Shown here: positions 9,146 through 19,785 of the stretch, in pieces
How the letters are laid out: each line of letters begins with the position of its first letter
How positions within the stretch are numbered: the stretch's first letter is position 1
Assembly (NCBI GenBank): GCA_029240775.1
Contig: JARDZQ010000001.1
Span: 1-31,310, forward strand
From: Rubrobacteraceae bacterium
Lineage (GTDB): Bacteria; Actinomycetota; Rubrobacteria; Rubrobacterales; Rubrobacteraceae
Reading direction: 5' to 3'
Length of the DNA stretch: 31,310 nt
The notes under the pieces: generated by a model
The model's database searches: none
The model's input: only the letters and a program-made list of their open reading frames with translations
Told to the model about the DNA's origin: nothing
Translations under genes and position numbers: made by a program

Positions 9146-10023
9146 GGTTCGTAGGTTGCGCAGCGGCGTGGAGGCCGGGCGAGGCGCGCGATCGCCACTC
9201 GTGTCTCGTGGTGCTGGACGAGCGGGGGAGCATCATCGCCAACTCCTTCGCGGAGGACGCGGGGCAGATAGCGGCGGCGATCGAGGACTACGCCGCCGAG
9301 CGGCGGGGTGTGATCGTCGGCGTCGACGCCCCGCTCGCCGTCCCGAACGAGCGGGGGACGCGCAGGATAGAGCGCATCCTCTCCAAAGTGGCGCTGCCGG
9401 CGTACTCGGCGAGTCGCAAGATGTTCGGCGGGGAGCCATACTCCGAGGAGCTCCTTTCACAGCTGGAGGGGGTGGGGATCGAGTACACGGACTACCCTTT
9501 CCCGCGGACGCGCGGCCAGAGGACGGTCACCGAGGTGGACTCGGCGGCTGCACTCAAGATCCTGGCTCTAGAGCGCACCGCCCGCGACGGCGAGCCTTCG
9601 TGGAACGAGCCGAACGGGAAGGACCTTGCGCAGGTGCTGCGCAAGATGGAGGAGCCGAAGCTGAGGAAGGGGAACAAGGAGGAGCGGGCCACGGCCCTCA
9701 AGACGGCGGTGGACATCCTCTGGAACACCCCGGGCCTGCGCCTGAGGACCGGTAACCTCTCGGCCGACCTCTCCGCATCCGAGAACGTGGACCTCTCGAA
9801 GATAGACGTGGGCGCCGGGCTCTCGCACGCGGAGCTCGACCGGATCGCGAGCCTCATCGAAGGGACGCTCGCGGCCTACGCGGTGCACCGGCACTGGCGG
9901 GGTCGTGACGGCTCGATGGTGGTCGGGACCGGCGACGAGGGCTCGGTCCTGCTGCCCGCCTCCGAGATACTTCACGCCCGCATAGCCGAGGAGTGCCGGG
10001 CAGCCGGCGTGCCCTACGTGTGA
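9142..10023 (+). CDS. DUF429-like (predicted RNase H-fold) protein with degenerate motifs; start moved to GTG 9142
   Basis: GTGA overlap with glmM; [10 protein letters not shown] and [20 protein letters not shown] resemble the DUF429 GxDLAW and DAPLxVPNxxGxR patterns. Confidence 0.6.
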
Positions 10024-10796
10024 CGGTGGGCCTCCTTGTGCGCATAATCCCGTGCCTCGATGTGGACGCCGGCCGCGTCGTGAAGGGGACCAACTTCAAG
10101 GACCTAAGAGACGCCGGGGACCCGGTCGAGCTCGCCGCTCTCTACGACCGCGAGGGGGCGGACGAGATCGTCTTCTACGACATCACCGCCTCGCACGAGC
10201 AACGGAACACCGCTACCGAACTGGCTCGCCGGACCGCCGAGAAGGTCTTTATCCCGTACACCATCGGCGGCGGGGTGAGGAGCGCCGACGACATGCGCGC
10301 TATGCTGCGTGCCGGGGCCGACAAGGTCTCCATAAACAGCGCCGCCGTCCGCAACCCCGACCTCATAAACGAGAGCGCGGAGCGCTTCGGTAACCAGTGC
10401 GTAGTACTCAGCGTGGACGTGAAGCGCCGCGCGTCCGCTCCCGGCTCCGCCCCCGGCTGGGAGGTCTACCTGAACGGAGGGCGCTTGAACACGGGGATGG
10501 ACGTCCTCTCGTGGCTCGTGGAGGGGGAGAGGCGGGGCGCTGGCGAGTTCGTCCTCAACAGCATGGACGCCGACGGCACCGAGGGCGGTTACGACCTGGA
10601 GCTAATCTCCGCCGTAGCCGAGAAGACGAGCGTGCCCCTGGTCGCCTCGGGCGGTGCGGGGGGCCCGGAGCACATGGTCGCGGCCGTCCACGCCGGCGCC
10701 GGCGCCGTGCTGGCCGCGAGCATCTTCCACTTCGGTGAGTGGAGCATAGCGGAGGTCAAGGAGTACATGCGAAGAGCAGGAATCCCGGTCAGGTGA
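10020..10796 (+). CDS. hisF: Imidazole glycerol phosphate synthase cyclase subunit (start approximate: 10020, 10026 or 10038)
   Basis: [61 protein letters not shown]. Confidence 0.96.
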
Positions 10797-12926: not shown

Positions 12927-13842
12927 ATGGGGGTCAAGGTAGACATCAGGGGCCCGGTCGGGCGGCGCATCCCCGAGGTCGTGGAGTTCGTACTGCGGTG
13001 CGAGGAGGCCGGGTTCCATGGCGTCGGGGTACACGACCACCACAGCGGCACAGACGTCTACGTCACCCTGGCGCTTGCGGCTTCCCGCACCAGCGATCTC
13101 ACGCTCTATCCGGCCACCTCCAACACCATCACCCGCTAGTGCTCGCCAACTCGCTCGAAGAAGGGCCCCCGGCAGGACCTTCCTGACCCTCGCGCCGGGG
13201 TTCCTCTCGGTGGAGTCCGCCGGGCGGCGCAGGGCTTCGCTCGAGAGCCTGTGCGATGACGTCGTCGCGATACGCCGACTGCTGGCGGGGGAGGCGGTAC
13301 CCTCCGGCGAGACGAGCGTGCGCCTGCGCAACCACCCCGACGGGCGGTTGCCGGTCTTGCTGACCGCGTCGGGTCCGCGCCTGCTCGAGCTGGCCGGCGA
13401 GGTCGCTGACGGGGCCCTGATGCTCGTGGGGTTGCACCCGGATTCCGTCGCAGCGGCCAGGGAGCACCTCAGGATAGGGGCGCACAGGGCCGTCGGCGAA
13501 GCAGAGGCGGTGGGGGAGTGGCCGCCGCGGTGGTTCCGACCAGACCAGCCGTGGCTCGAGTATCCGAGCCGGTCGAACCTCCGCTGGCTCAGGGAGGCCG
13601 GGCTACGACTGCCCGAGAGCCCGGAGCACATAGCGGATGACCTCGCCGAAGGCATCTGCGACGCATTCGGCCTCTTCGGCGGGGCCGAGCACTGCGCGGA
13701 GCGTTTGATCCGGGCGCACGAGGAGGCCGGTATCGACCACGCCTTCCTCTTTCCGGCTCACACCTTCGAGACCGGTTACGAGATGCCGCGGGCTGAGGTA
13801 GAGGCTTTCGGGCAGGTGATCCGACCCCGCCTCGAGGCCTGA
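12927..13842 (+). pseudogene. LLM-class flavin-dependent oxidoreductase, frameshifted
   Basis: The 5' part (EEAGFHGVGVHDHH..LALAASRTSDLTL) stops at TAG 13137-13139. HPLVLANSLEE follows in a second frame, and APGRTFL..ASGPRLLELAGEVADG..RPRLEA* in a third. Confidence 0.8.
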
Positions 13843-13967: not shown

Positions 13968-14573
13968 ATGTTAGGGGTTCTCCTGGTCTTGTGCGGGTAC
14001 CTGCTGGGCTCCGTGCCCACCGGACTTCTGGTGGGACGGGCCTTTGGCGTGGACGTGCTCGAGGTCGGCAGCGGGAACATCGGGATGGCCAACGTGCTGC
14101 GGGCGGCGGGCAAGTGGCCGGCCGCGCTGACCATGCTCGGGGACATGCTCAAGGGTTTCGTGCCCGTCGTGCTCGCGCGGGCGATCACCGACAACGGGTG
14201 GATCATAGCCGCCGTGGCGATGGCCGCCGTGATCGGCGCGTGCTGGTCGGTGTTCTTGAGATTCAGGGGGGGCAAGGCCGTGGCTACGGGGGCCGGGACG
14301 ACTATAGGGCTCGCTCTGCCCCTCGGGCTTGCGCTCTTCGCGCTGTGGTGGATCGTGGCGCTCACCACCCGCTACACTTCGCTGGCGGCGATCGTGCTGA
14401 TGATCGTGACGCCGTTCGCGTTCCTGGCCACCGGCCAGCCGCTCCCCTACGTGGTCTACACGGTCGCCGGCGGCCTGCTGGTCTTGTGGCGGCACCGGGA
14501 GAACGCGCGCGCGCTGCTCGCGGGCAGGGAGCGGAAGTTCGGCGAGAGGGTGAGGAAGAAGCGTGCTCGCTGA
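13968..14573 (+). CDS. plsY: PlsY-family glycerol-3-phosphate acyltransferase-like membrane protein (divergent)
   Basis: YLLGSVPTG, GSGNIGMANVLR, DMLKG, FRGGKAVAT, RYTSLA, RHRENARALLAGRE. Confidence 0.85.
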   Translation: MLGVLLVLCGYLLGSVPTGLLVGRAFGVDVLEVGSGNIGMANVLRAAGKWPAALTMLGDMLKGFVPVVLARAITDNGWIIAAVAMAAVIGACWSVFLRFRGGKAVATGAGTTIGLALPLGLALFALWWIVALTTRYTSLAAIVLMIVTPFAFLATGQPLPYVVYTVAGGLLVLWRHRENARALLAGRERKFGERVRKKRAR

Positions 14574-16821
14574 GGCCTACCGCGGGAAGTCGGTGCTGCT
14601 CACTGGAGGGACCGGCTTCCTCGGGACGGCGCTCGTCGAGAAGATCCTGCGCAGCCTCCCCGAGCTGGGTCGGCTTTATCTCCTGATCCGGGCCTCCCGT
14701 GAGAAGAGCGCCGCCTCTCGTTTCGAAAAGGACGTGCTGGACTCCGCCGCCTTTCGCGGGCTGCGCGAGGAGAGGGGCGACTCTTTTCGCGATTACGTTG
14801 CGAGCAAGGTGTGCGTGCTCGAAGGCGACGTGCACGCCCCCTCGCTGGGTCTCGGCGAAGAGGACCTCGCCGAGCTCTCGCGCGAGGTGGACGTGGTGAT
14901 CCACTCCGCCGCCTCGGTCGTCTTCGACGCTCCCTTAGACGCCGCGGTCGAGTCGAACGTCCACGGCACTCTAGGTCTGCTCCGGCTCGCGCGCGGTTGG
15001 GAGAAGAGGCCGCTCTTATTGCACGTCTCGACAGCCTACGTCGCCGGCATGCGCGAGGGCTTCGCGCCCGAGAAGCCGCCCGGGAGCCGGTCGCCGAACG
15101 GTACGCCGCTCGACCCCTACGAGGAGGTGTCGCATCTAGAGGGCGTGGTGCGGGAGGTAGAGGAGGCCTCGAGGGAGCGCGCGCTGCTCAGGCGATTCGA
15201 GACGGAGGCCAGGAGAGAGCTCGGGATGGTAGGCGAGGACGAGGAGGTCGCCGAGAGGACGGACCAGCTCAGGCGGGCCTGGGTGCGCGAGCGCCTCGTC
15301 GAGCGCGGTACCGAGCGCGCCCGCGCTCTGGGCTGGCACGACGTCTACACCTTCACCAAGTCGCTAGCGGAACGGATGGTCGTCAGGGAGCGGGGCGAGG
15401 TGCCGCTCATCATCCTCAGGCCGGCGATCATAGAGAGCAGCCAGCACGAGCCTTATCCGGGTTGGATCCAGGGCTCCAGGATGGCAGACCCGATCATCAT
15501 GGCGTTCGCGAAGGGGATCCTGCGCGAGTTCCCCGGCGACCCCGAGAGCCTGGTAGATATCGTACCCGTAGACCACGTCGTGAACGGAACTTTGGCGGCC
15601 GCCGCGAGGCGTCCCGAGGATCCTGAAGTCTTCCAGGTCGCCTCGGGGGACCACAACCCCTTGCGCTACCGCCAGCTCTACGAGCATGTCAGGGAGTACT
15701 TCCTCGAGAACCCGCTGCGCGACTCGGGCGGACGACCGCTGCAGCCCGCGGAGTGGAGCTTCCCCGGCCGCCGGGCCGTGGAGCGCCGGCTCAAGGCGGA
15801 GCTCGCTGGCCTCGAGGTCGCCGGAGTGGTGGTCTCCAGGTTGCCAGAAGGGCACATCACCGCCGATCTGCGTGGCAGGATCGCGCGCGCCGAGAAGCGT
15901 GCCAGGATGAGCCTCTACTACAGCCGCATCTACGGCCCTTACTCCTCGGGGACCGCGACCTTCTCGACGGCCCGGACCCTGGAGCTCTTCGACTCTCTCC
16001 CGCGAGAGGACAGGGAGGAGTTCCCCTTCGACATCGCCGACCTGGACTGGAGAGAGTGGCTGCAGGGGACCCACCTGCCGGCGCTCACGACGCGCCCGAG
16101 CCGCAAGAAGCGCAGGAAGGCGGCCGAGGAGAGGCCCAGGGAGGTGGCGGCGATCTTCGACGTGGACGGCACGCTCGTCGGCTCGAACGTGGTCTCGTAT
16201 TACGCCTGGCTTAAGATGCGCGAGATGCCAGCGGCGACCCGCCCGCTCTGGGCCGCCGGGTTTTTGGCCAAGATCCCCTTCTACTGGGCCCTGGACAAGG
16301 TGAGCCGGGCCCACTTCAACCGCGCGTTCTACAAGAACTACGCTGGCTGGGAGCCCTCCCGCGCCAGACACCTCGGCCAGGAGAGCTTCCCCGGCTTCAC
16401 CCTGAGCCGCATCTACCCCGACGCCCTGGAATGCTTGCGCGAGCACAAGCGGATGGGCCACCGCGTAGTCCTGCTCTCGGGCGCTTTAGACTTCCTCCTC
16501 GACCCGTTCAAGGACCTCGCCGACGATGTGCTCTCCGCCTCGCTCGCCGAGGAGGACGGCGTCTACACCGGAGAGCTCTCCGGGGCGCCGGTAGCGGGCG
16601 AGGCCCGCGCTAGGATGCTCGCCTCCTTCGCCCGCAAGCGGGGCGTGGACCTCGGCCGCTCCTACGCCTACGCCGACTCCATCTCCGACCTGCCGATGCT
16701 CGAGGCCGTCGGCAACCCGGTCGCCGTCAACCCCGACCGCAGGCTCGCCGCGGCCGCGAAGGAGCGCGGCTGGCAGCTGCGGCGCTGGAGCAAGAACGGC
16801 TCCTCCCCAGACAAGGTCTAG
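14563..16821 (+). CDS. Fatty acyl-CoA reductase (extended SDR plus sterile-like domain) fused to a C-terminal HAD-IB phosphatase
   Basis: FAR part: TGGTGFLG, HSAASVVF, HVSTAYV, YTFTK, RPAIIES, FPFD..LDW. HAD part from about 16141: IFDVDGTL, LSGA, AYADSISDLPML, AVNPD. Confidence 0.88.
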   Translation: MLAEAYRGKSVLLTGGTGFLGTALVEKILRSLPELGRLYLLIRASREKSAASRFEKDVLDSAAFRGLREERGDSFRDYVASKVCVLEGDVHAPSLGLGEEDLAELSREVDVVIHSAASVVFDAPLDAAVESNVHGTLGLLRLARGWEKRPLLLHVSTAYVAGMREGFAPEKPPGSRSPNGTPLDPYEEVSHLEGVVREVEEASRERALLRRFETEARRELGMVGEDEEVAERTDQLRRAWVRERLVERGTERARALGWHDVYTFTKSLAERMVVRERGEVPLIILRPAIIESSQHEPYPGWIQGSRMADPIIMAFAKGILREFPGDPESLVDIVPVDHVVNGTLAAAARRPEDPEVFQVASGDHNPLRYRQLYEHVREYFLENPLRDSGGRPLQPAEWSFPGRRAVERRLKAELAGLEVAGVVVSRLPEGHITADLRGRIARAEKRARMSLYYSRIYGPYSSGTATFSTARTLELFDSLPREDREEFPFDIADLDWREWLQGTHLPALTTRPSRKKRRKAAEERPREVAAIFDVDGTLVGSNVVSYYAWLKMREMPAATRPLWAAGFLAKIPFYWALDKVSRAHFNRAFYKNYAGWEPSRARHLGQESFPGFTLSRIYPDALECLREHKRMGHRVVLLSGALDFLLDPFKDLADDVLSASLAEEDGVYTGELSGAPVAGEARARMLASFARKRGVDLGRSYAYADSISDLPMLEAVGNPVAVNPDRRLAAAAKERGWQLRRWSKNGSSPDKV

Positions 16822-16822
16822 G

Positions 16823-18058
16823 GTGCTCGCCCTCCGCTACAGGAAGTCTGTCCCACGCTACCTGCTCATGCGCGCCGGCGCAAAGCGCATAAAGAGTCTG
16901 GAGACGAGCCGCTTCTCCCCCTTGAAGCTCGAAGAGATCCCCGACCCTACCCTCCCGACCTCCGAGTGGGTGCGGGTCAGACCCCTCCTCTCGGGTATCT
17001 GCGGCTCTGACCTTGGCACGCTCTCCTCCGGGAACTCGCCTTACTTCTCCCCGATCACCTCCCCACCCTTCGTCCTCGGCCACGAGGTCGTGGGCGTCGT
17101 TGCCGAAGACAATGGGGCTTTTCACGCGGGCGAGCGGGTCGTCCTCGAACCGGCCCTCGGCTGCGCTGTGCGCAGCATAGAGCCGCCGTGCCGTATGTGC
17201 GCCTCGGGCCGCTACGCCCTGTGCTTGAACGTCGCAAAAGGTGACATCTCGCCTGGCATCCAGACCGGCTTCTGCCGCGACACCGGCGGGGGCTGGTGCG
17301 AAGGTACGCTCGTCGCCCACCCCGCCCAGCTTCACAGGGTCCCGGACGACGTGCCGGACGAGGCCGCTGTCGCGGTGGAGCCGCTCGCCTGCGCGGTCCA
17401 CGCGGCACTGAAGGCAGACCCGGGCCCCGACGAGACGGCGCTCGTGGTCGGGGCCGGCTCCGTAGGCCTCTTCGTCGTCGCGGCGCTGGAGAACCTGACC
17501 CGCGCCGGACGGATAATCTGCGTCGCCAAGCACGATCGGCAGAGGAAGGAGGCCCTCCGCCTCGGCGCCGACGAGGTGGTGCACCCGAAAGACACCTACA
17601 CCACGCTCCCCGCCATGCTCGGCACCGAGGCGTACAGGCCGGAGATAGGCAAGCCCGTCGTCATGGGCGGCGCGGACAAGACCTTCGAGTGCGTCGGAGC
17701 CGCGGGAACGATGGAGGACGCCGTGAGGCTCACCAGGCCCGACGGCCAGGTCGTCCTCGTGGGGATGCCCTCCACGCGCAGCTGCCTCGACCTCACGGCG
17801 TTGTGGCACAAGGAGGTGACCCTCGCAGGCTCCTACGCCTACGGGATAGAGGAGTACGGGGGAGAGGAGATCAAAAGTTTCCAGCTCGCGCTCCGCCTCG
17901 CCCCGGCCGTGGACCTCGCGTCTCTGGTCGGCCCGCGCTTCCGCCTCACAGAGTACCGGGAGGCCATCGCCGCCGCCCGCGCCGCCGGCAGAGAGGGCCA
18001 CGTGAAGGTGGTCTTCGACCATAGAGCCGTTAGCTATGGGCCATCAGCGGTCAGCTAG
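16823..18058 (+). CDS. Zn-dependent medium-chain alcohol/polyol dehydrogenase (MDR family)
   Basis: SGICGSD, LGHEVVG, structural-Zn cysteines GC..PCRMC..ALC, EPLAC, GAGSVG, FECVG. Confidence 0.9.
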   Translation: MLALRYRKSVPRYLLMRAGAKRIKSLETSRFSPLKLEEIPDPTLPTSEWVRVRPLLSGICGSDLGTLSSGNSPYFSPITSPPFVLGHEVVGVVAEDNGAFHAGERVVLEPALGCAVRSIEPPCRMCASGRYALCLNVAKGDISPGIQTGFCRDTGGGWCEGTLVAHPAQLHRVPDDVPDEAAVAVEPLACAVHAALKADPGPDETALVVGAGSVGLFVVAALENLTRAGRIICVAKHDRQRKEALRLGADEVVHPKDTYTTLPAMLGTEAYRPEIGKPVVMGGADKTFECVGAAGTMEDAVRLTRPDGQVVLVGMPSTRSCLDLTALWHKEVTLAGSYAYGIEEYGGEEIKSFQLALRLAPAVDLASLVGPRFRLTEYREAIAAARAAGREGHVKVVFDHRAVSYGPSAVS

Positions 18059-18187
18059 AATTGCTGCCAACGTGCTGGTGGTGAGACCACGAAGCTATTC
18101 GGCGGTAGCTACTAGCACGGAGGCGAGGTCTGAGTAAGAAAGTTACGGCACAGAGAGCAGATAGCTGACGGCCCATAGCTGACAGCT
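18024..18187. repeat. Heptamer-based imperfect inverted repeat flanking an interior of about 100 bp
   Basis: Left arm 18025-18048 AGCCGTTAGCTATGGGCCATCAGC vs reverse complement of right arm 18164-18187 AGCTGTCAGCTATGGGCCGTCAGC (21/24 identical). Arms are built from 7-mers such as CAGCTAT/ATAGCTG. Confidence 0.8.
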
Positions 18188-18207
18188 TTGCGACCGAAGG
18201 GAGCAAT

Positions 18208-19785
18208 ATGAGCCGTCCCGGTTTCACGACCATCCTGGACAAGAGCAGCCCTCCGATGATGTTTAACGCGGGGGACGGGTTCCACTACGAGAAGCTCCCC
18301 GAGGGGACGCGGGTAGTCTATCCTCCGGGCTCCCTCACGCCGCTCGCGGATCCCGGCGTCGCCATCGAGCGGGCGCTGCTCGAACCTTTTGCGATGGAGC
18401 CGCTGCACGAGCTATTGCGTCCCGGAATGAAGCTCACCATCGCCTTCGATGACCTCTCGATCCCGCTTCCACCCATGCAGGCCCCGGACAACCGCCAGCT
18501 CATAGTGGAGAAGGTGCTGGAGAAGGCATACGCGAAAGGCGTCGAGGACATCCACCTTATAGCCGCCCTTGGGTTGCACCGCAGGATGACGAGGGCGGAG
18601 ATCCACCACATGCTCGGGAAGAGTATCGTCAATCGCTTCTACCCTGAGAGGCTCTACAACTACGACGCAGAGGACGAGGAGAACCACGTAACGATAGGCG
18701 AGACCGAGCGCGGCGAGGAGGTGCGGGTAAGCCGCCGCGTCGCCGAGAGCGACCTGCTGGTCTATATAAACGTCAACTACATCCCGATGGACGGCGGCCA
18801 CAAGTCCGTCCACACCGGCCTCTCGCCCTACTCCTCCATCCGCCACCACCACAACCCGGAGACGCTGGAGCACACGCGCTCTTTGATGGACCCGCCCAAC
18901 TCCGCGATGCACGGCTCCATAGACAGGATGGGCCGCATCTTCGACGAGAACGTCAAGGTCTTCCACATAGAGACGACCCTGAACAACGCCTCTTACCCGC
19001 ATGTCTTCGACTTCATGGCGAAGCCCGAGCACGAGTGGAACCCGGTTACCCGCGCGAACTTCCTCGCGAACCACGGGGCGACGCGCTCGATGCCGCGCCG
19101 GGCCGCCCGCAAGGTCTTCCAGAGCATCAAGGCCCCGCACAAGATGACGAGCGTGCAGGCCGGCGCTACCGACCCCGTCCACGCCGAGACTCTCAAGCAC
19201 ACCTACCGCCAGCAGCTCGTGCCCGTCGAGGGGCAGTCCGACGTGGTGTTGCTCGGCGTCCCGTACCTGGGGCCCTACAACGTCAACTCCGTAATGAACC
19301 CGCTGCTGGTCATGAACATGCTGCTCGGCTACCTCTTCAATTTGTACAGGGGCAAGCCGCTCGTGCGCCGGGGCGGGGTCCTCATCGGGACCCACCCCAT
19401 GCCCGAGGAGTTCCACGAGATCCACCATCCATCGTACATAGACCTCTGGAACGAGGTGCTTCCTGAGACCACCGACCTGTACGAGATCGCCGGCCGCTAT
19501 GAGGAGAGGTACGCCTACGACCCCTGGTACCGCACCCTGTACCGTAACTCCTACGCCTACCACGGCGTCCACCCCTTCACCGTGCTCTACTGGGCGGCCC
19601 ACGCCATGGAGCACCTCGGGGACGTAATCGTGGTCGGCGGCGACCCGAAGACCACCAAGCGCCTCGGCTTCAAGCGCTCGGATACGGTGGCCGAGGCGCT
19701 CGAGATGGCGCAGGACACCGTCGGCCCGAGCCCGAGCACCACCTACATGCACATACCGCCGCTCTTTATCTGCGAGGTGAGCTAG
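18208..19785 (+). CDS. Lactate racemase (LarA/DUF2088) domain protein, 525 aa
   Basis: AAGGGAG SD; PLHELLRPGMKLTIAFDD, IAALGLHRRMT, NYDAED, VSRRVAESDL, GGHKSV.TG, SIRHHH. Confidence 0.75.
   Translation: MSRPGFTTILDKSSPPMMFNAGDGFHYEKLPEGTRVVYPPGSLTPLADPGVAIERALLEPFAMEPLHELLRPGMKLTIAFDDLSIPLPPMQAPDNRQLIVEKVLEKAYAKGVEDIHLIAALGLHRRMTRAEIHHMLGKSIVNRFYPERLYNYDAEDEENHVTIGETERGEEVRVSRRVAESDLLVYINVNYIPMDGGHKSVHTGLSPYSSIRHHHNPETLEHTRSLMDPPNSAMHGSIDRMGRIFDENVKVFHIETTLNNASYPHVFDFMAKPEHEWNPVTRANFLANHGATRSMPRRAARKVFQSIKAPHKMTSVQAGATDPVHAETLKHTYRQQLVPVEGQSDVVLLGVPYLGPYNVNSVMNPLLVMNMLLGYLFNLYRGKPLVRRGGVLIGTHPMPEEFHEIHHPSYIDLWNEVLPETTDLYEIAGRYEERYAYDPWYRTLYRNSYAYHGVHPFTVLYWAAHAMEHLGDVIVVGGDPKTTKRLGFKRSDTVAEALEMAQDTVGPSPSTTYMHIPPLFICEVS

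Follow-up and report, generated by a model that had tools for sequence, protein, structure and literature searches.

What would a homologue of the lactate racemase LarA do in a lipid operon? The question is raised by the open reading frame (ORF) at positions 18208-19785 of a 31,310-nucleotide stretch of DNA from a Rubrobacteraceae bacterium (assembly GCA_029240775.1, contig JARDZQ010000001.1, positions 1 to 31,310, forward strand; 'the window' hereafter means this whole stretch), which lies behind genes for the acyltransferase PlsY, a fatty-acyl reductase (FAR) fused to a HAD-type domain and a Zn-dependent dehydrogenase (Zn-ADH). A sequence-only reading had taken its product, here called LarAH, for a LarA-fold protein with a remodelled active site, and our analysis places it in a class of LarA homologues to which ElbC of the Myxococcus ether-lipid (elb) operon would also belong. 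We lean, if only slightly, towards the view that LarAH is an enzyme that depends on the nickel-pincer (NPN) cofactor and acts in the synthesis of ether lipids (1-O-alkyl-glycerol).

Fold and active site of the LarA homologue

The match of this ORF to the LarA family is far beyond chance. Pfam Lar_N (PF09861) matches its N-terminal domain only (E 4e-38, 131 bits, cut-off 23.3), and NCBIfam NF052592, which is named 'NPN-dependent hydroxyacid isomerase, LarAH14/15/16 family', spans it as a whole (853.5 bits, where the cut-off is 740, E 4e-257, profile positions 3-519 of 520). By score, LarAH also stays well away from the bona fide lactate and malate racemases: the lactate racemase model NF033504 gives 75 bits (cut-off 460) and the malate racemase model NF052593 gives 89 bits (cut-off 500). 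The proposed fold is borne out by an AF2 (AlphaFold2) model built from a 45-sequence alignment (pLDDT 95.6, pTM 0.93), with which Foldseek retrieves 19 significant matches, all of them LarA-family structures, at TM scores up to 0.77/0.85. The best match is 9q3k_A, a single-histidine LarA homologue (TM 0.77/0.84, E 3e-34); the top matches are 9q3k, 9q3j, 9eid, 2yjg, 5huq and 6d6z, where 9q3k and 9q3j rank ahead of the LarA proteins from Isosphaera, Thermoanaerobacterium and Lactiplantibacillus plantarum and of Mar2. The model thus confirms a predicted two-domain LarA fold across the entire protein. By sequence, we assign the gene to group 14 of the LarA superfamily, in a class that probably includes Myxococcus ElbC.

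Residue equivalences were taken from HMMER and profile alignments of LarAH to solved LarA structures (9eid, 5huq, 9q2u and 2yjg) and not from structural superposition; as a control of the numbering, Asp73, Lys76, His115, Asn185 and Lys195 of LarA_Sp agree with the published numbers. By these alignments, Asp82 corresponds to Asp72 of the L. plantarum enzyme (LarA_Lp), which binds the NPN ribose, Lys199 in the motif DGGHKS to Lys184, the covalent NPN tether, His124 to His108, the first catalytic base, and His215 to the nickel-binding His200, with the spacing of Lys plus 16 kept. The counterparts of the LarA motifs G-x-H-R and GGxK and of the following His, which had been picked out by eye, are therefore the residues His124, Lys199 and His215. 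The change of the D-x-T-R motif to DDLSIP was likewise read correctly, with the Asp retained as Asp82 and Ile85 standing opposite Arg75, the residue that contacts the NPN phosphate or the substrate carboxylate. The P-H site before GGxK is indeed altered, and the second catalytic His has no His counterpart; the pairing of Pro193-Met194 with LarA P-H174 did not hold, for these two residues align with Gly-Phe of 'AGFSGGRK'. In profile alignments to LarA_Lp and LarA_Tt it is Asn190 that faces His174, and this is favoured by the end of beta-strand 183-190 of the model at Asn190. The loop from N188 to K199 is ca. 4 residues shorter than in LarA, and its N-x-N (N188-V-N190) is kept throughout the group 14/15 clade.

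The residue table of Desguin et al. (2020) gives for group 14 the series D, I/L, H, gap, gap, L/Q, K, H ... M, N, D, W, Y, with V297 replaced by M and K298 by N. LarAH shares this signature (D at position 72, I at 75, H at 108, H174 absent, K at 184, H at 200, M at 297, N at 298, and D, W and Y at T353, P355 and D356, which the window reads as D438-P-W-Y) and differs from the group at two signature positions, with Thr443 for His and Asn447 for Thr. Since V-M363-N364-P of LarAH fits the published signature, Asn364 probably stands for Lys298. A further pair, Asp94-x-Arg96, is a candidate replacement phosphate binder; in an alignment of the wider family (A1), Asp94 is found in 66 of 69 sequences and Arg96 in 68 of 69, including degenerate relatives.

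Taken together, the aligned residues point to an active site in which the ribose Asp, the Lys tether, the nickel-binding His and one catalytic His are retained and Arg75, His174 and Lys298 are replaced by Ile85, Asn190 and Asn364. By alignment, LarAH thereby has the Lys, His and Asp common to NPN-dependent LarA-type enzymes (Lys199, His215 and Asp82), and it lacks both the pair of catalytic His residues of the 2-hydroxyacid racemases and epimerases (LarA, Mar, Hgr and GntE) and the Arg75 and Lys298 of the LarA-family racemases and epimerases. Asp82, His124, Lys199 and His215 are invariant in an alignment of the clade (A2) and across Rubrobacteria, Dormibacterota-type metagenome-assembled genomes (MAGs), Actinomycetota and the elbC-type clade, which argues for selection on cofactor binding and agrees with the earlier suggestion that the anchoring residues are kept while those that bind the substrate have changed. 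The absence of His174 from groups 14 and 15 has been published, and groups lacking His174 or Lys298 may, according to the literature, catalyse another hydride-mediated reaction. Frankia LarAH14, the published orthologue of LarAH, showed no activity on lactate or on six further 2-hydroxyacids. With this inactivity and the racemase scores far below cut-off, the view that the substrate is not lactate, which the sequence-only reading had put forward as probable, is well supported.

Relation to the elb operon and conservation of the gene neighbourhood

Group 14 as described by Desguin et al. (2020) comprises, among others, Frankia sp. Franean1_4168 ('LarAH14'), Acidimicrobium Afer_1430 and Ilumatobacter YM304_22240, which fall with LarAH in the same equivalog, NF052592. 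The published neighbours of the group, COG0204, COG0560, COG1063 and COG3320, amount to the set found in the window, namely an acyltransferase, a HAD protein, a COG1063 dehydrogenase and a thioester-reductase domain, except that the acyltransferase of the window is PlsY and not of the PlsC type (COG0204). The literature already describes this group, including the loss of His174 and the lipid-type neighbours, and LarAH is another instance, from a Rubrobacteraceae MAG; no Rubrobacteraceae host occurs among the rows of the 2020 dataset that are listed.

The link to ether lipids comes from group 15, the sister clade within the same equivalog. In the dataset of Desguin et al. (2020), this group contains MXAN_1529 of Myxococcus xanthus, together with genes of Stigmatella, M. 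fulvus, Haliangium, Sorangium and Anaeromyxobacter. The elbD gene of M. xanthus is MXAN_1528, and it is flanked by elbC, annotated as a protein whose function is not known, and by elbE, an NAD-dependent epimerase/dehydratase (PMC9131029); MXAN_1529 would therefore be elbC. The published group 15 neighbours, COG0451 (twice, 150%), COG0560 and COG1022 (Desguin et al. 2020), correspond to the set of elbA/E, elbB and elbD. A homologue, P0002, is 47% identical to LarAH and scores 760 bits on NF052592, above the cut-off. Its gene lies 2 bp upstream of one for a 1561-aa protein with NAD_binding_4, AMP-binding, PP-binding and Acyltransferase domains, which is followed by an NAD-epimerase gene, and this is the elbC-elbD-elbE layout of PMC9131029. 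P0002 has kept the D, H, K and H of LarAH and lost R75, H174 and K298, and in our tree the elbC-type clade neighbours the group 14 clade that holds LarAH. We infer from the two papers and the P0002 locus that ElbC is a LarA homologue; no paper that we found states it. Disruption of elbD strongly lowers the ether lipids of Myxococcus (PMC9131029). Literature searches for nickel-pincer enzymes or lactate racemase together with ether lipids returned nothing relevant, and a 2026 paper describes LarA homologues as known only for hydroxyacid racemisation and epimerisation.

Like elbC, the gene in the window stands beside a fatty-acyl reductase, a HAD protein, a glycerolipid acyltransferase and an additional dehydrogenase (13968-19785). 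The two operons differ in that the elb reductase is part of a giant protein combining FAR, acyl-CoA synthetase (ACS), acyl carrier protein (ACP) and AGPAT domains, with HAD encoded as a separate gene, and in that the additional oxidoreductases of elb are SDR-type epimerase/dehydratase proteins and not a Zn-ADH. No ElbD-type ACS or ACP domain and no SDR-type ElbA or ElbE turned up: AMP-binding and PP-binding domains are absent from the reductase fusion, the additional oxidoreductase is a Zn-ADH, and the other window ORFs scanned, which were not all of them, lack these domains too.

Among solved structures, the closest to LarAH are the group 17 proteins LarA_Sp and LarA_Bw (9q2u/9q3k and 9q3j; E 9e-83 by profile, TM 0.77/0.84). 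They resemble it in their length of ca. 500 aa, in having one catalytic His, in an Asn near the second-His region, in the retained NPN Lys, His and Asp, and in an Arg that aligns with Arg96. They are, however, 21-25% identical to LarAH, carry Lys in place of Arg75 and have an Asn-bearing loop 4 residues longer, and their genes adjoin glycolytic or sugar genes instead of lipid genes. LarA of L. plantarum (5HUQ) shares the two-domain fold, the first catalytic His, the tether Lys, the nickel-binding His and the Asp that contacts the ribose, whereas it is 17-18% identical, about 100 residues shorter, and in possession of Arg75, His174 and Lys298.

The operon is widely conserved. The closest genomic relatives of LarAH (96-72% identity) belong to Rubrobacteraceae MAGs, and in the cultured Rubrobacter radiotolerans (CP007514) an orthologue with 73% identity occupies the same gene order, hisF-hisIE-trpE ... 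plsY - FAR-HAD - ADH - larAH. The triad of FAR-HAD, ADH and LarAH is kept, with PlsY upstream, in the Rubrobacteria-type loci wherever the contig reaches that far. It recurs, wherever the contig suffices, in ca. 25 loci that share 55% identity and mostly bear the label Dormibacterota, and all 12 of 12 loci from different actinobacterial families have it as well. A glycerolipid acyltransferase lies beside the triad in every case checked, which is PlsY in the window and in R. radiotolerans, and PlsC in loci L083 and L098. In L083, which is of the Dormibacterota type, a 213-aa protein (9575-10216) without any Pfam or NCBIfam match is encoded between LarAH and the PlsC-type acyltransferase. LarAH exceeds the family cut-off in 31 of 121 sampled Actinomycetota genomes, a tally that includes the unpublished genome G092, and it is present in all 9 Rubrobacteraceae. 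The distant 'GGWKS' relatives P0009, P0013, P0014 and P0051 have no lipid genes in their contexts, so the lipid association holds for the group 14/15 clade and not for the whole family. Within the clade, a conserved and translationally coupled lipid operon, together with the homology to the elbC position, speaks for the lipid link that had been suggested from the letters. A separate family member, P0033 (947 aa), is joined to a chlorophyll a/b-binding domain, which suggests a eukaryotic (algal) protein or a merged gene model.

Coordinates of the active-site residues and operon features are collected in Table 1. PlsY overlaps the FAR-HAD gene by 11 nt; as an observation in its own right, translation of the housekeeping sn-1 acyltransferase is thus coupled to that of the reductase-HAD gene, in a lineage whose lipids are reported to be mainly sn-1 alkyl lipids. 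The PlsY of the operon is the sole PlsY match in the window genome, with PlsX located elsewhere (G000:C515), and PlsY is single-copy in 7 of the 9 Rubrobacteraceae genomes; the single PlsY lies in or beside the operon in the window genome and, as judged by coordinates, in the complete genome G089. The nearest NCBIfam models of the Zn-ADH, all below cut-off, are idonate 5-dehydrogenase, threonine 3-dehydrogenase and galactitol-1-phosphate 5-dehydrogenase, which are polyol or sugar-phosphate secondary-alcohol dehydrogenases. The spacer of 149 nt between Zn-ADH and LarAH holds most of an inverted-repeat element that overlaps the last codons of the ADH gene and stops 9 nt before the LarAH start, just ahead of the ribosome-binding region. 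The folding energy of this element as RNA is -58.5 kcal/mol (z -3.96), and no Rfam family was found in the window, including for the element. The same junction varies in relatives from ca. 20 nt up to 1.4-2.6 kb (L009 and L015) and looks like an insertion hot spot. Between 13700 and 20100, no promoter-like sites were found, and terminator-like sites were no more frequent than by chance. LarAH is followed by an unrelated NhaA antiporter gene. Between trpE and plsY, a 274-aa ORF (13018-13842) matches only positions 96-213 of the 314 of a luciferase-like monooxygenase (LLM) model and could represent an F420-type LLM gene that is truncated or divergent; it is common to two close relatives (L009 and L020) and absent from most.

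Table 1. Positions in the window of LarAH, its aligned active-site residues and the associated operon features
Feature	Position	Strand	Details
LarA homologue, assigned to group 14 of the LarAH14/15/16 family (elbC class)	18208..19785	+	525 aa, ATG start; NF052592, AF2 model, Foldseek
Asp82-Leu-Ser-Ile85	18451..18462	+	motif AFDDLSIP; alignments to 9eid, 5huq, 9q2u
Asp94-x-Arg96 (candidate phosphate binder)	18487..18495	+	inside 7-residue insertion relative to LarA (vs 5huq)
His124	18577..18579	+	motif ALGLHRR
Loop N188-V-N190-Y-I-P-M-D-G-G-H-K199-S	18769..18807	+	profile alignment to 5huq and 2yjg
His215	18850..18852	+	motif SIRHHH
Asn364 in 'VMNP'	19297..19299	+	probable counterpart of LarA Lys298; nearly invariant in A2
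PlsY (acyl-phosphate:glycerol-3-phosphate acyltransferase), first operon gene	13968..14573	+	Pfam G3P_acyltransf E 7e-48; TIGR00023 161 bits, cut-off 137
Fatty-acyl reductase (NAD_binding_4 + Sterile) fused to HAD-IB phosphatase-type domain	14563..16821	+	752 aa; NAD_binding_4 E 1e-67, HAD E 4e-35, TIGR01490 132 bits
Zn-dependent medium-chain dehydrogenase (COG1063 type)	16823..18058	+	411 aa; Pfam ADH_N + ADH_zinc_N; starts 2 nt past FAR-HAD stop
Imperfect 44-nt inverted-repeat pair around ca. 99 nt	18013..18199	not assigned	75% complementary; MITE-like or structured intergenic element

Cofactor supply and alternative explanations

An NPN-dependent enzyme would call for the products of larB, larC and larE. 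The sequence-only reading had correctly noted that these genes are absent from the window and had pointed to the rest of the genome, which is 77% complete and in which larB, larC and larE lie on contigs C343, C159 and C239 and all exceed their curated cut-offs (LarC 400 bits; LarB 239 bits, cut-off 175; LarE 326 bits, cut-off 150). Their absence from the window therefore says nothing. The complete Rubrobacteraceae chromosome G001 has LarB, LarC and LarE, and there the operon gene is the only Lar_N gene. In genome G056, NPN biosynthesis is physically joined to the lipid operon: FAR-HAD, ADH, LarAH, PlsC, LarE (290 bits), LarB (223 bits) and LarC (121 bits, LarC1 model) follow each other on one strand, with the PlsC-type acyltransferase, larE, larB and larC at L098:8702-12085 in partly overlapping frames. 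In a congener, G099, a LarC match lies on the strand of LarAH, ca. 2.5 kb away from it. LarC is also present in 28 of the 31 sampled Actinomycetota genomes that carry LarAH (the LarC tally includes the unpublished genomes G005, G052, G092 and G124). We set this co-occurrence aside as a statistical argument, as LarC is found in 88 of the 121 sampled genomes. Altogether, we infer from the conserved residues that LarAH may bind NPN.

Several observations weigh against an NPN-dependent step in ether-lipid synthesis. In Myxococcus only elbD, and possibly elbE, has been shown to matter for ether lipids (PMC9131029). The Zn-ADH takes the place of the SDR-type ElbA and ElbE, and the operon in the window lacks ElbD's ACS and ACP domains, so that the two pathways may differ. 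LarC occurs in 60 of 90 sampled genomes without LarAH, so its co-occurrence with LarAH discriminates weakly. Another LarA homologue is encoded in the window genome, matching NCBIfam 'NPN-dependent isomerase, group 22' (502 bits, cut-off 400; contig C312, L002:799-2136, minus strand), which could itself be the client of LarBCE, and LarBCE is thus not uniquely assignable to LarAH. In G018, G078 and G120, three genomes of one actinobacterial family that are 94-98% complete, no LarB, LarC or LarE scores above cut-off, and yet the triad is present with every cofactor residue preserved (L094, L095 and L096). Degenerate paralogues without the Lys and both His residues nest, in a quick tree, inside the actinobacterial group 14 clade, and the published group 16, in which the cofactor-binding residues are not conserved, keeps its COG0204 and COG0560 neighbours.

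The last three of these points would also fit a role without NPN, in which LarAH serves the lipid operon as a scaffold, as a lipid- or phosphate-binding subunit, or as a catalyst through Asp94, Arg96, Arg125, Glu131, Asp153, Asp182 and Asp345, the LarA-type residues being a relic. In line with this, about half of the wider family in alignment A1 has lost the Lys and the two His yet keeps the family-specific conserved residues. We nevertheless hold an NPN-free role to be unlikely, given that Asp82, His124, Lys199 and His215 do not vary from Rubrobacteria to the elbC-type clade, that larE, larB and larC directly follow the operon in G056, and that G001 maintains LarBCE with the operon LarAH as its sole LarA homologue. 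Two further observations belong here. G033, a fourth member of the family of G018, G078 and G120, has larB, larC and larE. The degenerate relatives P0010, P0016, P0023 and P0044, which resemble group 16 of Desguin and have no catalytic His, tether Lys or nickel-binding His, retain Asp94, Arg96, Arg125, Glu131, Asp153 and Asp182.

That LarAH is instead an ordinary NPN-dependent racemase or epimerase of another 2-hydroxyacid, such as a 2-hydroxy fatty acid, glycerate or phosphoglycerate, with the surrounding lipid genes using or supplying the acid, appears very unlikely to us. The NCBIfam family name and the activity of all characterised LarA homologues on 2-hydroxyacids fit such a role, as do the one catalytic His and the cofactor residues; however, two-way inversion needs two bases according to the literature, the residues at Arg75, His174 and Lys298 have become Ile85, Asn190 and Asn364, and Frankia LarAH14 was inactive on all seven 2-hydroxyacids. 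We likewise give a low probability to an NPN-dependent, lipid-related enzyme with a different product, be it fatty alcohols, wax-type lipids, long-chain diol lipids, an unusual phospho-head group or the interconversion of glycerol-phosphate stereoisomers. The reductase-HAD fusion and the polyol-type dehydrogenase are compatible with several lipid or head-group routes, and group 17, which holds the closest solved relatives, is found beside triose-phosphate enzymes and was co-purified with a phosphorylated ligand (literature). Against these products stand the homologues found at the place of elbC in an operon where disrupting elbD causes a strong drop in ether lipids, the reported dominance of 1-O-alkyl lipids in the host lineage and, for glycerol-phosphate stereoinversion, the missing second base, on account of which a racemase that converts glycerol 3-phosphate (G3P) to G1P was placed low.

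A possible role in ether-lipid synthesis

Rubrobacterales membranes are reportedly dominated by mixed 1-O-alkyl ether/ester lipids. In the ether-lipid reading that we favour, PlsY, FAR-HAD, the Zn dehydrogenase and LarAH would together build the 1-O-alkyl-glycerol-phosphate backbone of such lipids. The NPN cofactor would be tethered by Lys199, with His215 ligating the nickel and Asp82 holding the ribose, and His124 would deprotonate a secondary alcohol, for which the sn-2 hydroxyl of G3P or of a 1-acyl or 1-hemiacetal derivative is the most plausible candidate. NPN would take a hydride from the deprotonated secondary carbinol, the transient 2-keto intermediate, of the dihydroxyacetone phosphate (DHAP) type, would allow formation of the sn-1 ether from the fatty aldehyde or alcohol of the reductase, and the hydride would then be returned without inversion.

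Two routes can be pictured. In one, the stored hydride would reduce an aldehyde-derived hemiacetal or oxocarbenium to 1-alkyl-DHAP, which the Zn-ADH would then reduce; in the other, an acyl group installed by PlsY would be exchanged for a fatty alcohol in the manner of AGPS, with the hydride going back to C2. Members of the PlsY family acylate G3P at the sn-1 position. That the acyltransferase of the operon is PlsY, usually the only copy in Rubrobacteraceae, slightly favours the exchange route. In Myxococcus, an elbD-dependent fatty aldehyde has been detected and a fatty alcohol has not (PMC9131029), which slightly favours the hemiacetal route. Neither route involves inversion, which would explain the single histidine, and a mechanism of this kind would explain why the second His, Lys298 and the carboxylate-binding Arg75 are dispensable.

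A more specific claim is that LarAH14/ElbC itself is the ether-bond-forming catalyst of the AGPS-independent pathway of aerobic bacteria. In this version NPN would serve to oxidise transiently the sn-2 carbinol of G3P, or of 1-acyl-G3P supplied by the acyltransferase of the operon; through the 2-keto intermediate the alkyl chain would be installed at sn-1 from the aldehyde or alcohol that the reductase provides, and the hydride would be returned. We offer it tentatively, as possible and well short of probable.

The gain from the window alone is small, the gene type having already been catalogued. The synthesis of 1-O-alkyl ether lipids without the flavoenzyme AGPS in aerobic bacteria, among them myxobacteria, Rubrobacter and many Actinomycetota, has been an unsolved problem since 2014, when the elb operon was reported, and joining the orphan LarA groups 14 and 15 with elbC provides a concrete candidate for the missing step. 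If LarAH14/ElbC does form the ether bond, LarA-fold enzymes would have their first non-racemase reaction and membrane-lipid synthesis its first step that depends on nickel. If the ether-lipid reading is true, nickel-pincer chemistry would extend from hydroxyacid racemisation to lipid synthesis, and the ether-lipid content of these bacteria would depend on nickel.

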